DNA of 19,161 bases from Candidatus Hydrothermarchaeota archaeon. Lineage in GTDB: Archaea; CAYFZR01. The notes beneath the pieces are model-generated. The model did not search any database. It was not told the DNA's origin and saw only the letters and a program-made list of their open reading frames with translations. This document shows, piece after piece, positions 11,723-19,161 of this stretch. Numbering within the stretch: position 1 is the first letter of the stretch; the number at the start of each line of letters is the position of its first letter. Position numbers and translations under genes: made by a program. Where the stretch lies: positions 1-19,161 of the forward strand of contig JBHIEG010000029.1 in the NCBI GenBank assembly GCA_046760505.1, given 5' to 3'.

Positions 11723-12147
11723 TTTAACCTTCTATAAATTTGTTGAAATCCTATAAAAAGTTTGTAAAATAAAAGTTATAGATAACTCTTAAATTAAAAG
11801 AACCCTCAATTTCGGTGTCCCTCCACTAAAAAACTTAAACCAACATGAATAAGTTAAAAAAGGATTTTCTAACAAAAAATTGATTTTTTTGGCTTTAAAG
11901 ATATTTATAGGTGAGGAGAGAAATAAATAAGTGAGAAGACGAAAAGAAGAAATGGAGAAAAGAATGTTGTGAAATTTATAAAAAAAGAATTCCCTCTTGG
12001 TATCTGAGACTAAAAAACATAAATATGCTGTTTTTGGAAATTGAGAAGGAAGTTTGATGGGTAGAGCGATACGATGTTGGGCTGTGAGAAGTAATGCACT
12101 GAATTTGGATAAAAAACTTAAAGAATTTAAAAAGGTGGAGGATTGAC

Positions 12148-12402
12148 ATGGATTACTCAGAAATTTTATCTATTATTGGACTATTTTTTGATTTTTTAGG
12201 CGCAGTCATTTTGATGTTTCCTCTTTTTGAAAGCAAAGAAAAAATAAAAGAGCTTGTTTCTTCTACGGATTATAAACCTATTTTTGAGGAAGACAAGGCT
12301 CGATTAAAGGAATCTCTTCTGGAAGAGATAAATATTGGAATTATTGGTTTGACTTTTATATTCTCTGGTTTTCTCTTACAAATAATCGCTAAGTTCTATT
12401 GA
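12148..12402 (+). CDS. Small two-TM membrane protein, uncharacterised
   Basis: 84-aa ORF preceded by aggtggagg. Two hydrophobic helices flank an acidic/basic linker. Confidence 0.5.
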   Translation: MDYSEILSIIGLFFDFLGAVILMFPLFESKEKIKELVSSTDYKPIFEEDKARLKESLLEEINIGIIGLTFIFSGFLLQIIAKFY

Positions 12403-12586
12403 TTTTATTCCCGAGCAATTTCACAAACAATTTTTCACCAATTGATTTCGAAATTTTTTATCATGATTTATCGTTACTGAAAAAGGTTATATTCTACAAA
12501 CTCAATAGGGGTTAAACAAAAGTGAGGGGAAAATAAGCAATCGGAAAAAAATTTTGTGAATCTTTTACCAAGATGGCGTGGTGGGG

Positions 12587-13366
12587 ATGGCAAGTATCTA
12601 CCAGCAGGACGAAGATCTCAAATTGATAGAGACTTACGCCAACATACATGACGTTGTTCAGAACTTGCCTGATTCTCTTTACTCCAAGCATCAACTCGCT
12701 GAGTTAAGAGAAGTTACCGAAAAACTGGGGAGGGATCTCAAACTTTATTTATCTAAAGATAGAGACTCCAAAGAGATTGAAACGATGATCTCCACTGCAA
12801 TAGAAGAAGTAAAAAACAGAAGAAAGTTTTTTGGACTCTACGAAGTAGTTCCGTACTTTGAAAAAAAAGAAACAAACTTCCTAAAAGCCCTTCACAAAAA
12901 GGCGTTGGATTCTTCGATACTTGAGGTATTAAGCAGCGAGGGGGTAATTAAACTCGAAAAAGAAAAGAAAAAATCCATAAAAAGAAGCATATGGCTTGGA
13001 ACAGAACTGGAAATGTATGCAGTCCTTGGTAGTATTGAGATTCCTTCCGAATTTAGTTTTTCAGAGGAAATTATAGATAAGATCTCAAAGGAGTGCGTCA
13101 GGATCTTATACTCACGGATAAAAAACGAGAGAGAAAAATATCTAAGGCATTTACTCAGATTGCTCGATTTCAAACACAAGGTTGGAATTTATCATTTAGA
13201 CCCAGATCTCTGGCGTTTTTTTGTTGTAATAGAAGCGGATAGATTGCTTGACATTCGTGGCGAATTTATCCACGACCTTATAGAACTTTCGATATTGATC
13301 GAAAAGCTAAGGGAGTTAGGAGAGGAAATAGCCGTTGGAAAAAAAAGGCCCCGAAAAAACGGATAA
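12587..13366 (+). CDS. Uncharacterised alpha-helical protein (track ORF 12578-13366; ATG 12587 preferred)
   Basis: Codon usage matches its neighbours. Charged, helical, with no motif I recognise. The C-terminal RLLDFKH weakly resembles a HEPN R-x5-H motif. The ORF ends 1 nt before the convergent guaAA stop. Confidence 0.55.
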   Translation: MASIYQQDEDLKLIETYANIHDVVQNLPDSLYSKHQLAELREVTEKLGRDLKLYLSKDRDSKEIETMISTAIEEVKNRRKFFGLYEVVPYFEKKETNFLKALHKKALDSSILEVLSSEGVIKLEKEKKKSIKRSIWLGTELEMYAVLGSIEIPSEFSFSEEIIDKISKECVRILYSRIKNEREKYLRHLLRLLDFKHKVGIYHLDPDLWRFFVVIEADRLLDIRGEFIHDLIELSILIEKLRELGEEIAVGKKRPRKNG

Positions 13367-16063: not shown

Positions 16064-16078
16064 TTGGAGGAGCATAAC

Positions 16079-17317
16079 GTGAAGTCAAGCGAAACTCCAA
16101 ATTCGAAGGGTAAAGACCCGGATGATTTTTCAAGATATCTACTTAATAGAGTAAAACAACTTGAAACTGCATATAGCCAAGCAAAGGAAGACCACAGAAG
16201 ACTAGAGAATGAGAAAAAATATATCGAAAGCGAAAGAATGCGCATGGAAAGGGAGGTTCGCAGACTTAGGAGCGAGTTAGAAAGGCTCAAAAGCCTTCCT
16301 CTGGTTGTGGCAAATGTTATCGATGTGTTAAACGATGACAAAGCCATCGTAAAAAGCTCAACAGGTCCCAATTTTGTTGTAAATATTTCTCAATTCGTAG
16401 ACAAAAAGAAACTTGTCCCTGGGGCACGTGTCGCTCTCAACCAACAATCATACGCCATAATTGGAACATTACCAACTGAGAAAGATCCATTCGTTAGAGG
16501 AATGGAGATAGAAGAGCGACCACCCACAAGATACGAGGACATAGGTGGATTAAAAGCTCAGATAAGAGAAATAAGAGAAACTGTCGAGCTACCCCTAAAA
16601 AGACCAGATTTATTTGAAAAAATTGGTATTGAACCGCCTAAGGGCGTGATGCTATACGGTCCGCCAGGCACAGGTAAAACTCTCCTTGCAAGGGCAGTAG
16701 CACATGAAACTGATGCCACGTTCATCAAAATTATTGGTTCGGAATTGGTCCAAAAGTATATTGGAGAAGGCGCAAGGATGGTAAGAGAAATTATACAACT
16801 TGCAAGGGAAAAGGCTCCAAGTATAATATTCATAGACGAACTAGACGCAATAGGTGCAAAAAGACTTGAGAGCGCAACAAGTGGAGATAGGGAGGTTCAA
16901 AGGACGCTGATGCAGTTGCTCGCTGAGATGGACGGATTTGATCCTAGGGGAAATGTAAGGTTTGTTGGAGCAACAAACAGACCTGACATCTTAGATCCTG
17001 CTCTTCTTAGACCCGGTAGGTTTGACAGACTTATAGAGGTCCCGATGCCAAACTACGAGGCGAGGGTGGAGATATTTAAGATACACACAAAAAACATGAA
17101 TGCCGAAAACATCGACATAGAAAACCTTGCAAAAATCACCGACGGGGCTACGGGTGCAGATATAAAGGTCATATGCACGGAAGCAGGCATGTTCGCGATA
17201 AGAGATGAGAGAGATACCGTCTATATGGATGACTTCCACAAGGCCATTGAGAAAGTCTTAAAATTAAATGGTAGAATTGGAGAGGTAAAAGAATCCGTAG
17301 GAATAATGTTCGGATGA
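16079..17317 (+). CDS. pan: Proteasome-activating nucleotidase PAN (AAA+ ATPase)
   Basis: Coiled-coil N-terminus, Walker A GPPGTGKT, Walker B IIFIDELD, and the C-terminal HbYX-like tail. GTG 16079 lies 6 nt after GGAGGAG. The track's TTG 16064 overlaps the SD. Confidence 0.9.
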
Positions 17318-17327
17318 ATGCTCCTCC

Positions 17328-17377
17328 ATGATGAAATTTCTAAACTGATACCAGATGATGAATGATGGGCGAACTGA
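17328..17377 (+). ncRNA. C/D box sRNA (2'-O-methylation guide): C ATGATGA 17328-34, D' CTGA 17345-48, C' ATGATGA 17355-61, D CTGA 17374-77
   Basis: Two exact RUGAUGA boxes and two CUGA boxes. Guide spacers are 10 and 12 nt and the D'-C' gap is 6 nt, the canonical archaeal C/D architecture. It begins 10 nt after the pan stop. Confidence 0.7.
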
Positions 17378-17401: not shown

Positions 17402-17674
17402 TTATCTGTGGTTATATTGTCTATTTCTTCTGTTGAGGTAGTATATTCTTTTGCTGATTCCTGCTTTCTTCCCGAACTTTTCGATATTCCTTCTTACAGT
17501 AGAGTAGTCTAGCGGATAGCCTTTGTTCTTGGTTCCGATGCCGACCCAAAGAGATGCATCCGGGTTTTCCTTTAGAGAGTGATTGTCCATCCAAGTGGCT
17601 AGGTAGGGAGAGTGTGAATTGTACCATGGTGCGGGAGACAAGACAGCTCCCTCAGTTCTAAATCCCTTTTTCAT
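17402..17674 (-). pseudogene. Remnant of a tyrosine recombinase/integrase (internal fragment without catalytic H-x-x-R / Tyr region)
   Basis: The 90-aa ORF ...LWVGIGTKNKGYPLDYSTVRRNIEKFGKKAGISKRI matches the conserved segment just upstream of the HxLRH box of XerC/D-like integrases. None of the three frames downstream encodes the catalytic motifs. The flanks are AT-rich and non-coding. Confidence 0.45.
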
Positions 17675-17819
17675 TTAGGCTAATAAAAAATTAAGGCTAT
17701 CTTATATTAGTTTTTGATACTTAAATCTTTTATTTGTATTGTTATTGTAATAGAAAGTATATCTGAGAGATAGCGGTAGAAGAGTTTTATTTTAACTTTT
17801 AAAAGAAGAAAGCACTAGG

Positions 17820-18509
17820 TCAAACCAGCTTCCCGAGCGCGTGTATTACATCGGGCTTGTGACACTTCGTACACTCTGGTATCGTGATCTCGATAGTTCC
17901 GTGGCAATTCTCGCAAGTGGGCCCTTTCTTTCCTTCTTTTTCTAATCTCTTTTTTGCATGAATATAGTGAACTGTTCCATGACACTTATAGCATAATTCG
18001 TTGCCTTTAGCTATTTCGTGATGTATTCTCAGCAGGTTGTCTGCGTGACATGCTTGACAAATTATCTTGTCCTCCTCTACGGTAGGTTTAACTATTTCAG
18101 GAGGACTTTGATGGCATATTGCACAAGCTCCACCATGTATCTTTGCAACATCTGCTCCATGACATCTAGCACATATGACTTCTCCCACCTTAACATGCAA
18201 TTCCGTTACATCACCATGGCATGTTGTGCAGTTCTCTCTTGCTGGTCTTTCGTGGATTTCGTGTATGGGTGGAGAGTGACATTTTACACATTCAGGTATC
18301 TCTACGCTAGGCAAAAAGCCATGACAATCTGAGCAGCCTATCCATACATCTGCATGAATGCTGTGAGCCACATCGTGACAACCATAACAAAAGGACTTCG
18401 TATAATTCTTCTTTTCAGGATTCTGCGTCTTCTCCTCTGAGATGGTGGGTATTGATACTGTAACGAGAAGGATCACTACAAAAACTAAACCTATGGACAA
18501 TCTCTTCAT
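17820..18509 (-). CDS. Secreted decaheme c-type cytochrome (10 CxxCH, likely all bis-His ligated)
   Basis: Signal peptide/anchor MKRLSIGLVFVVILLVTVSI, then ten CxxCH motifs plus 11 additional His in about 200 residues. Confidence 0.85.
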   Translation of the reverse strand: MKRLSIGLVFVVILLVTVSIPTISEEKTQNPEKKNYTKSFCYGCHDVAHSIHADVWIGCSDCHGFLPSVEIPECVKCHSPPIHEIHERPARENCTTCHGDVTELHVKVGEVICARCHGADVAKIHGGACAICHQSPPEIVKPTVEEDKIICQACHADNLLRIHHEIAKGNELCYKCHGTVHYIHAKKRLEKEGKKGPTCENCHGTIEITIPECTKCHKPDVIHALGKLV

Positions 18510-18596
18510 GCCATCCTCTCAGTCTTATGATGGGAATAATAATATAAAATTATGTTGAGAAATTACCTATACTATTAAATTTCCCTATTTCTTGGA

Positions 18597-18824
18597 ATGG
18601 TTTTAAGATATCTAAAGTTCCTAAAAAACCAAGACTGGCCGGTAACGACCGAAATGGTTGCCAAAGAGGTTAAAATACCCTGGAACACAGCTCAGATCCA
18701 TCTTCTGAAATTAACATCTGAAGGATTAGTGAAAGGAAAGAAGGTCGGAAGGCAGAACCAGTGGATTATCACAAGAAAAGGCAAAAGTTTAATGGAAGAA
18801 GATTCAGCAAAGCATTCGTTTTAG
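18597..18824 (+). CDS. Small winged-helix DNA-binding protein (putative regulator/antitoxin)
   Basis: 75 aa, basic, with a helix-turn-helix-like pattern (TTEMVAKEVKIPWNTAQIHLLKLTSEGLVKGKKVGRQNQW). It is divergent from the cytochrome gene and 40 nt upstream of the toxin-like ORF. Confidence 0.5.
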   Translation: MVLRYLKFLKNQDWPVTTEMVAKEVKIPWNTAQIHLLKLTSEGLVKGKKVGRQNQWIITRKGKSLMEEDSAKHSF

Positions 18825-18864
18825 AATAAGTAATTAAATATAAATTCCATCTCTAATCATATAC

Positions 18865-19161
18865 ATGGTTATTTTTAATGTTAAATCAAGGTTGGAAAGG
18901 AAGATTAGGCTCACAGAAGTTCAATGGGCACATACAAGAACTAGGCACAAAGAAATGGACGTGCAAACTCGAAAAATGATATTGACCCTGGAAGAACCTG
19001 ACCTTGTTTACCATTCACCTAAAGAGGAAAACTACCATTACTACAAGTTATTTAGGGAAACTCCTATAAGTGAAAAGTATTTATTGTTAATCGCTAAACA
19101 TTTAAATGGAGAGGGATTTGTAATTACAGCTTTCTTCGTTTCGAAAATAAGGGAGAAAGAT
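18865..19161 (+). CDS. DUF4258-like small toxin-type protein, partial (runs off window end)
   Basis: Open frame from ATG 18865 (or 18877) to the window edge. It is not in the ORF track because no stop lies within the window. The pattern ...RLTEVQWAHTRTRHKE...LLLIAKHLNGEGFVITAFF resembles the HA-motif/VITAY DUF4258 family. Confidence 0.4.
   Translation, partial: MVIFNVKSRLERKIRLTEVQWAHTRTRHKEMDVQTRKMILTLEEPDLVYHSPKEENYHYYKLFRETPISEKYLLLIAKHLNGEGFVITAFFVSKIREKD

Follow-up and report, generated by a model that had tools for sequence, protein, structure and literature searches.

Multihaem cytochromes have already been reported from Hydrothermarchaeota, with up to 10 haem-binding motifs in metagenome-assembled genomes (MAGs) from Guaymas and up to 67 in MAGs from Juan de Fuca, and they have been discussed as possible components of iron reduction or syntrophy (PMC6759336, PMC6775978). 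A class of small multihaem cytochromes carrying PGF-CTERM was described by Chadwick et al. 2022 (PMC9012536), a paper that also lays out the concept of small multihaem carriers, with small cytochromes proposed for anaerobic methanotrophic archaea (ANME). Here we analyze a contig of 19,161 nt from a Candidatus Hydrothermarchaeota archaeon (JBHIEG010000029.1; the whole stretch is called the window below), whose last 1.8 kb, downstream of the gene for the proteasome-activating nucleotidase (PAN), hold a gene for a decahaem c-type cytochrome next to the remnant of a tyrosine integrase. The cytochrome shares a homologous core with the PGF-CTERM proteins, and the same MAG appears to encode a second, diverged copy of it at a conserved locus.

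Decahaem cytochrome and its family

The cytochrome gene (17820..18509, minus strand) was recognized by CxxCH count, Pfam and family alignment. Its 229-aa product has 10 CxxCH motifs, starting at residues 41, 59, 74, 94, 113, 129, 151, 173, 199 and 213, together with 20 Cys and 21 His, 11 of which lie outside the motifs; the start Met is its only Met. The conserved distal His residues are at positions 49, 52, 83, 86, 105, 125, 163, 181, 184 and 223. The initial annotation had described a lone secreted cytochrome with 10 CxxCH motifs and 11 further His, and this count is upheld exactly. The N-terminus, which we read by eye, consists of MKR, a 17-residue hydrophobic stretch and TIS/EEK, and looks like a Sec signal, which would leave ~205 mature residues, or ~20 per haem. 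This is denser than tetrahaem c3, with ~27 residues per haem, or MtrA, with ~33.

By Pfam, the protein is a class III (c3/c7-type) multihaem cytochrome, with matches to Cytochrom_c3_2 (PF14537; 41.6 bits, cut-off 25) and Cytochrome_C7 (PF14522; 39.5 bits, cut-off 24.8). The c7-polymer part of the earlier description, "c3/c7-polymer-like," is not borne out: polymerized c7 cytochromes are built of repeated trihaem c7 domains, each with one His-Met haem, and the window protein has no Met for such a haem. We rejected a polymerized c7 (GSU1996 type) or nanowire trihaem domain, there being no internal Met and no TIGR04257 match (the relative P0005 reaches E=0.052). Membership of the MtrA/DmsE decahaem family (TIGR03508, cut-off 192 bits) was likewise rejected; the window protein gave no match to this model and its relatives scored 23–26 bits. 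Nor did the window protein match the CctA model, for which its relatives fell far below the cut-off. A profile search of PDB sequences retrieved HmcA (E=2.9e-10) and MtrC (~4e-7), whose likeness to the window protein is at motif level only, and found no close relative among solved structures. AlphaFold2 run on a 13-sequence alignment returned an unusable model, with a predicted local distance difference test score (pLDDT) of 43.8 and a predicted template modelling score (pTM) of 0.23.

A search of 5.8 billion protein clusters yielded just two close ones other than self, P0002 (69% identical to the window protein) and P0003 (65%). When 1.84 billion representatives were scanned in full with HMMER, only 56 matched at E<=1e-3, 16 of them at E<=1e-10. 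The next relatives are 33–42% identical and 244–327 aa long, with 11 CxxCH motifs, and those with names come from MAGs of ANME-2, Methanosarcinales and Methanoperedenaceae. The remaining matches are repeat units of giant cytochromes with 19–72 haems; such repeat segments were kept out of the alignment because their register is ambiguous. Across the 13 aligned sequences (36–69% identity to the window protein), all ten CxxCH motifs and all ten distal His are invariant or nearly so. Eight of these His and nine of the motifs (all but the first, which is nearly invariant) are among the 43 invariant columns. One conserved distal His per haem, together with the absence of an internal Met, argues for bis-His ligation of all ten haems.

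The comparison with the PGF-CTERM cytochromes of ANME-2, Methanosarcinales and Methanoperedenaceae (TFH40705.1, HID26314.1 and HIH43958.1) shows a homologous core spanning residues 1–228 (36–42% identity, E 1e-31 to 1e-19), within which 10 haem motifs and 10 distal His match those of the window protein column by column. The PGF-CTERM proteins continue into an 11th CxxCH and, in most cases, a Thr/Pro-rich linker and the PGF-CTERM archaeosortase signal, whereas all four Hydrothermarchaeota sequences terminate with ...HALGKLV, short of these three elements, so that no lipid anchor is predicted for them.

PGF-CTERM relatives also stand alone among housekeeping or haem-pathway genes. A Methanosarcinales family member (L092) lies alone among housekeeping genes, one distant member (L098 280-9599) sits beside HemC, HemL, HemA, precorrin-2 dehydrogenase-like and NirD/L-like genes, and another (L099 7920-10016) beside CcmA, CcmB and CcmC. 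These placements, near haem-biosynthesis genes, near CcmABC or alone, fit genuine c-type cytochromes that have no need of partner genes nearby. For the window itself, the initial annotation had seen no ccm or porin genes, and there are indeed none among its proteins. The Methanosarcinales locus also carries a gene for CdhC, the acetyl-CoA synthase beta subunit, with an intein that has a LAGLIDADG endonuclease domain (L092 11612-14710, minus strand; precomputed Pfam).

The cytochrome gene is flanked by putative expression signals. Upstream lies a divergent intergenic region of 87 nt (18510..18596, delimited by direct reading of the sequence; GC content 0.29), whose minus strand has a TATA-like TTTTATATTA ~28 nt upstream of the cytochrome ATG and whose plus strand has a TATA-like element upstream of the ATG of a facing winged-helix gene; we infer the promoter assignment from these motifs. 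A Shine-Dalgarno-like GAGG stands 6–9 nt upstream of the cytochrome ATG. Directly after the stop codon, in a 145-nt AT-rich spacer delimited in the same way (17675..17819; GC content 0.24), the minus strand has a T-rich tract that looks like an archaeal oligo-T terminator. The ratio of nonsynonymous to synonymous substitution rates (dN/dS) of the cytochrome is ~0.08–0.12, a sign of purifying selection. Relative to the sister contig L088, the window has an in-frame 6-nt indel (18127–18147) in the loop before haem 6; two residues kept by the other family members are missing from the window allele. The dN/dS, the in-frame indel, the TATA-like box, the GAGG and the T-rich tail together indicate that the window cytochrome is an old and maintained paralogue that is probably expressed.

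Core-locus paralogue and proposed function

The closer of the two related clusters, P0002, is MFQ6051632.1, a "cytochrome c3 family protein" of 232 aa. Its neighbours are tagged ACE5K4_08025 to _08115, and the NCBI proteins of the window, listed under "Candidatus Hydrothermarchaeota archaeon," carry locus tags ACE5K4_09380, _09385 and _09390. The shared prefix places the P0002 locus and the window in the same MAG, which on this evidence holds both cytochrome paralogues. P0003, from a sister species, shares one gene order with P0002 in four loci (TFE-alpha, cytochrome, FrhB-like, Mtd). These core-locus copies have the signal peptide, 10 CxxCH motifs, 10 distal His and C-terminal end of the window copy, at 65–69% identity, and differ from it in setting: they lie between TFE-alpha and the FrhB-like/Mtd pair, whereas the window copy lies between the integrase scar and the winged-helix gene.

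Of the two paralogues in this MAG, the window copy is the earlier-diverging one, and their divergence is old. P0002 and P0003 are 79% identical, their neighbours are 80–95% identical, and the window protein branches outside this pair. Synonymous divergence (dS) is ~2.5 and saturated between the paralogues, as compared with ~1.06 between the orthologues, and DNA similarity between the window and the core loci is limited to the open reading frame (ORF). Among the 5.8 billion clusters, the window-type copy was seen only in this population, and none was found in three assemblies holding P0003, which have the core-locus copy only.

The core cytochrome belongs to a longer, conserved Hydrothermarchaeota cluster (L003 15-6839 and L005 5892-12585) that encodes, in order, a CCG (HdrD-like) protein, a protein of 119 aa, three proteins of 225, 242 and 47 aa that have several hydrophobic segments, a NapH-like polyferredoxin, TFE-alpha, the cytochrome itself, an FrhB/FdhB-like protein after a gap of 26 nt, and Mtd. 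Possibly this cluster serves as a membrane module for electron export, linked with one-carbon (C1) metabolism dependent on coenzyme F420. The tight linkage of the core paralogue to the FrhB-like protein and Mtd hints that cytochromes of this family draw off electrons from C1 oxidation that depends on F420. In the window copy this linkage has been lost, and the winged-helix gene that it faces may be its regulator.

We propose that the window cytochrome is likely a soluble extracytoplasmic haem relay. The pre-protein would be exported by Sec, its signal peptide cut around residue 24, and its ten haems would be attached covalently by an archaeal Ccm system encoded elsewhere in the genome. Each haem would be low-spin, ligated by the motif His and one of the ten conserved distal His, and the closely spaced haems would form a continuous chain, with about one haem per 20 residues. 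Having neither PGF-CTERM nor a membrane anchor, the window protein would be a soluble carrier between membrane and S-layer, passing electrons from cytoplasmic-membrane oxidoreductases to outer acceptors, for example larger cytochromes at the surface, metal oxides or partner cells. The proposed functional analogues are PpcA, STC/CctA and MtrA/DmsE, small exported bis-His multihaem carriers that connect membrane quinol oxidases with outer acceptors; the window protein is a member of none of these families, and an archaeon has no outer membrane or porin partner.

Integrase scar and origin of the window copy

A 90-codon ORF (17402..17674, minus strand) lies on the other side of the AT-rich spacer. 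A tblastn search of 50,697 phage records with its 90-aa product matched only two archaeal pleomorphic provirus integrases, that of Geoglobus acetivorans pleomorphic virus 1 (GacPV1; gp01, DBA54614.1; E=9e-8, 36% identity) and the XerC of Pleomorphic virus ThalV2 from an Archaeoglobus MAG (DBA54669.1; E=2e-4). Both viruses are now placed in Thalassapleoviridae (2025 summary by the ICTV, PMC12451623). The alignment covers residues 171–227 of the 374-aa GacPV1 enzyme and ends directly before its PHILRHS (HxxR) box. The ORF as a whole corresponds to ~residues 155–227 of a 374–408 aa integrase; the N-terminal domain, the first catalytic Arg (Arg-I), HxxR and Tyr are missing. The likeness to Thalassapleoviridae integrases thus amounts to 30–36% identity over ~57 catalytic-domain residues, with about a quarter of the integrase gene left here. 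No further integrase pieces were found in any frame of the window or of the sister contig L001, and this absence, together with the incomplete catalytic set, indicates a remnant rather than a working enzyme, the dead middle third of a tyrosine integrase of the type found in thalassapleovirus proviruses of hyperthermophilic Archaeoglobi. Pfam Phage_integrase matched below threshold (PF00589; E=0.007, 16.6 bits against a cut-off of 27.1), NCBIfam XerA matched at E=0.035, and a k-mer protein search returned no homologue besides the ORF itself. Despite the weak Pfam score, the tblastn matches confirm the truncated tyrosine integrase of the initial annotation. We found no other thalassapleovirus genes at the window locus and no similarity of its attachment-site (att) region to the virus ends.

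Between the PAN gene (16064-17317, plus strand) and the integrase remnant lies a candidate archaeal C/D-box small RNA (sRNA) of 50 nt (17328..17377, plus strand), identified by a strict box pattern and sub-threshold Rfam scores. The pattern, ATGATGA-10 nt-CTGA-6 nt-ATGATGA-12 nt-CTGA, presents the C, D', C' and D boxes in order; it occurs once in the window and in 0 of 5 other loci, and neither L096 nor L097 has it downstream of PAN. The best Rfam C/D-box match is sR3 (22.4 bits, E=0.0057), with further matches to sR1, sR2 and sR18; sub-threshold scores are expected, as the C/D-box family models are tied to specific guides. Starting 10 nt past the PAN stop codon and ending 24 nt before the integrase remnant, the candidate sits at the patch's left edge.

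On the far side of the cytochrome, a 75-aa ORF (18597..18824, plus strand) has matches to winged helix-turn-helix (wHTH) proteins in three libraries: Pfam HTH_45 (9e-4) and other wHTH families, PHROG 31115 (7e-5) and the PADLOC Csa3/CARF wHTH region (2e-5). The matches are consistent with the small winged-helix protein first read here, but all are sub-threshold. The protein is possibly a local regulator or a mobile-element leftover; that its gene is a duplicate of the TFE-alpha gene beside the paralogue was ruled out (E=0.11).

The last ORF of the window (18865..19161, plus strand) is cut by the contig end and is complete in L001 (226-549, minus strand; 107 aa). Its Pfam PBECR2 match is sub-threshold (E=7e-4; 20.3 bits, with the cut-off at 27.1), and it possibly encodes a toxin-type nuclease of the BECR fold, which we offer as a lead only. 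The earlier DUF4258-like assignment was not borne out, with no Pfam DUF4258 match at E<=0.1. PHROG, PADLOC and phage searches gave no matches for this ORF, and AlphaFold2 on the single sequence gave an unusable model (pLDDT 44.1). Neither the wHTH ORF nor the toxin-type ORF had a significant tblastn match in the phage records, and scans of viral contigs found no match for the toxin-type ORF, the cytochrome or an exact wHTH 31-mer. Near the end of the toxin-type ORF, an in-frame 6-nt indel (19139-19144) distinguishes the window from L001. The toxin-type ORF is directly followed in L001 (34-189, minus strand) by a 51-aa ORF, EEGVFARYHPKSKELVGLTVVNFSKK, which by eye is like the C-terminal half of DUF2283 antitoxin-like proteins, again a lead only; this ORF had no DUF2283 match at E<=0.1 and no match in Pfam, NCBIfam, PHROGs or PADLOC.

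Over the tail, sister contigs assembled from three sequencing runs match the window at 99.3–99.9% identity, and L001 adds ~250 nt beyond the window end, which complete the last ORF and supply the 51-aa ORF. Four independent assemblies (the window, L001, L002 and L088) end within ~260 nt of one point, shortly after the toxin-type ORF. The common end point could be due to a repeat, or to a segment farther on that varies between strains.

We read the last 1.8 kb as a small accessory patch downstream of PAN, in which the window cytochrome most likely arrived long ago, either together with an integrated element that has since decayed or by entering it, the donor belonging to the same phylum; our confidence in this account is evenly balanced. 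Relocation of the gene or its transfer within the phylum is plausible but unproven, and a transfer would have to be old enough for the cytochrome to look compositionally native. Horizontal acquisition, as suggested in the initial annotation, is only partly supported, by the accessory gene content, the divergent second paralogue and the absence of the block from the two nearest PAN loci. The PAN scan of genome contigs returned mostly distant archaea, L008 being the useful locus, and an MBF1 scan of metagenome contigs returned one distant locus. L008, L096 and L097 (PAN 75–76% identical in the latter two) keep the MBF1-PAN pair and have other genes downstream of PAN, GatE-like or other in the nearest loci.

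Several observations weigh against arrival by transfer. The PAN relatives are distant, their flanks differ from those of the window on both sides and upstream synteny is also broken; since the PAN neighbourhood varies on both sides, the absence of the block there is weak evidence. The cytochrome has a GC content of 0.429 (0.378 at third codon positions, GC3) and a synonymous-codon log-likelihood of -1.024, as compared with a housekeeping null of -1.067 +/- 0.041, indicating that the block is host-like, with no foreign signal. The tail departs from its housekeeping context in accessory-type gene content but not in GC, GC3 or codon usage. The earlier statement that AT-rich sequences flank the block is misleading: AT-rich spacers (GC 0.18–0.29) sit inside it and are like the other intergenic DNA of the contig (0.29–0.32), and the left flank has a GC content of 0.39. 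We found no att-like direct repeats, only short imperfect ones (14–24 nt, 75–93% identity), with the right border past the contig end; the window contains no tRNA and no second copy of the sRNA 3' end. All close cytochrome homologues come from the same phylum, and no family member was found in the phage records (tblastn) or in the viral contig collection; a plasmid collection (tblastn) gave one weak match, 24.5% identical, on a bacterial plasmid. The integrase remnant shows that an element was once here, not that it carried the cytochrome. The paralogy itself depends on the integrity of the bin; the search yielded no PAN above 76% identity for the sister species. Export, loading with haem, bis-His ligation and the role as a relay are predictions, and the structure model reached a pLDDT of 43.8.

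Many of the same observations fit an old in-genome duplication within the Hydrothermarchaeota lineage, before the split of the two sampled species, with later loss in the sister species and with the integrase scar, the wHTH gene and the toxin-type ORF as unrelated debris at a permissive site. We regard this as a serious though rather unlikely alternative. Composition and codon usage are host-like, paralogue dS is saturated and exceeds orthologue dS, the close relatives are all in the same phylum, no known mobile element has a family member, and stand-alone placement among housekeeping genes is normal in the Methanosarcinales relative that we retrieved. However, a duplication requires that the P0003 lineage has lost the window-type copy (three independent assemblies of that lineage contain the core-locus one only), and it requires the coincidence of three element-type genes around the copy; DNA homology, moreover, stops at the ORF borders.

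It is improbable that the paralogy is a binning or strain artefact, with the window and the ACE5K4_080xx contigs coming from two co-occurring related organisms. Both contigs are MAG and metagenome assemblies of one sample series, the window, L003 and the sister species L005 are indistinguishable by tetranucleotide profile (r = 0.97, all pairs), and no PAN above 76% identity was found for the sister species. By contrast, both contigs share one NCBI locus-tag prefix and one run of protein accessions, the two genes are not positional orthologues, having completely different neighbourhoods, and the database holds no second closely related PAN from these samples. We give just as little weight to a scenario in which a thalassapleovirus-related integrative element moved the decahaem cytochrome as cargo between Hydrothermarchaeota lineages, inserting beside a C/D-box sRNA gene and not a tRNA gene. 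Finally, although the cytochrome gene adjoins a pseudogenized integrase and has no maturation or partner genes nearby, it is most unlikely to be a non-functional relic of a decayed element like the integrase fragment, given its full-length ORF, the retention of 20/20 haem-binding Cys and 20/20 axial-ligand His (10 motif, 10 distal) at 31–35% divergence from its paralogues, a dN/dS of ~0.1, a population indel that is in frame, and intact promoter-like and Shine-Dalgarno-like motifs.

Remainder of the contig and significance

The housekeeping part of the window encodes TBP, IleRS, an MptE-like protein, PdxS/PdxT, an MBF1-like protein and PAN. A gene-poor AT-rich stretch of 850 nt (11723-12577; GC content 0.29) lies between a PP-loop ATPase gene and a 262-aa ORF without a Pfam match, and contains small ORFs only, including one of 84 aa (12148-12402) with a membrane-protein-like appearance. 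Rfam at the gathering threshold gave no match anywhere in the window, this stretch included, and sigma-70 and terminator scans, which are not suited to archaea, gave no excess over shuffle expectation. Logan contigs show a joint break at the opposite end too, near window position 13200-13340.

The locus reveals no new type of system, and the claim of mobility is unproven; its points of note are the family's very small size, the high density of haems, the presence of two paralogues and the thalassapleovirus-type integrase scar. Multihaem cytochromes are the main genomic clue to possible metal respiration, or to a possible passing of electrons to partners, in uncultured Hydrothermarchaeota (PMC6759336, PMC6775978). 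Here, one archaeon appears to keep an unusually haem-dense decahaem protein without an anchor in two diverged copies, and the core copy, in a conserved operon-like setting with F420-linked C1 enzymes, and the window copy, in a variable and scarred patch, form a concrete pair for comparison of expression and biochemistry. The Hydrothermarchaeota proteins are now also linked to the small PGF-CTERM cytochromes of methane-oxidizing ANME-2, a family without a solved structure. If element-borne transfer is true, the capacity for extracellular electron transfer would be mobile among hydrothermal archaea, carried by viruses or other elements.

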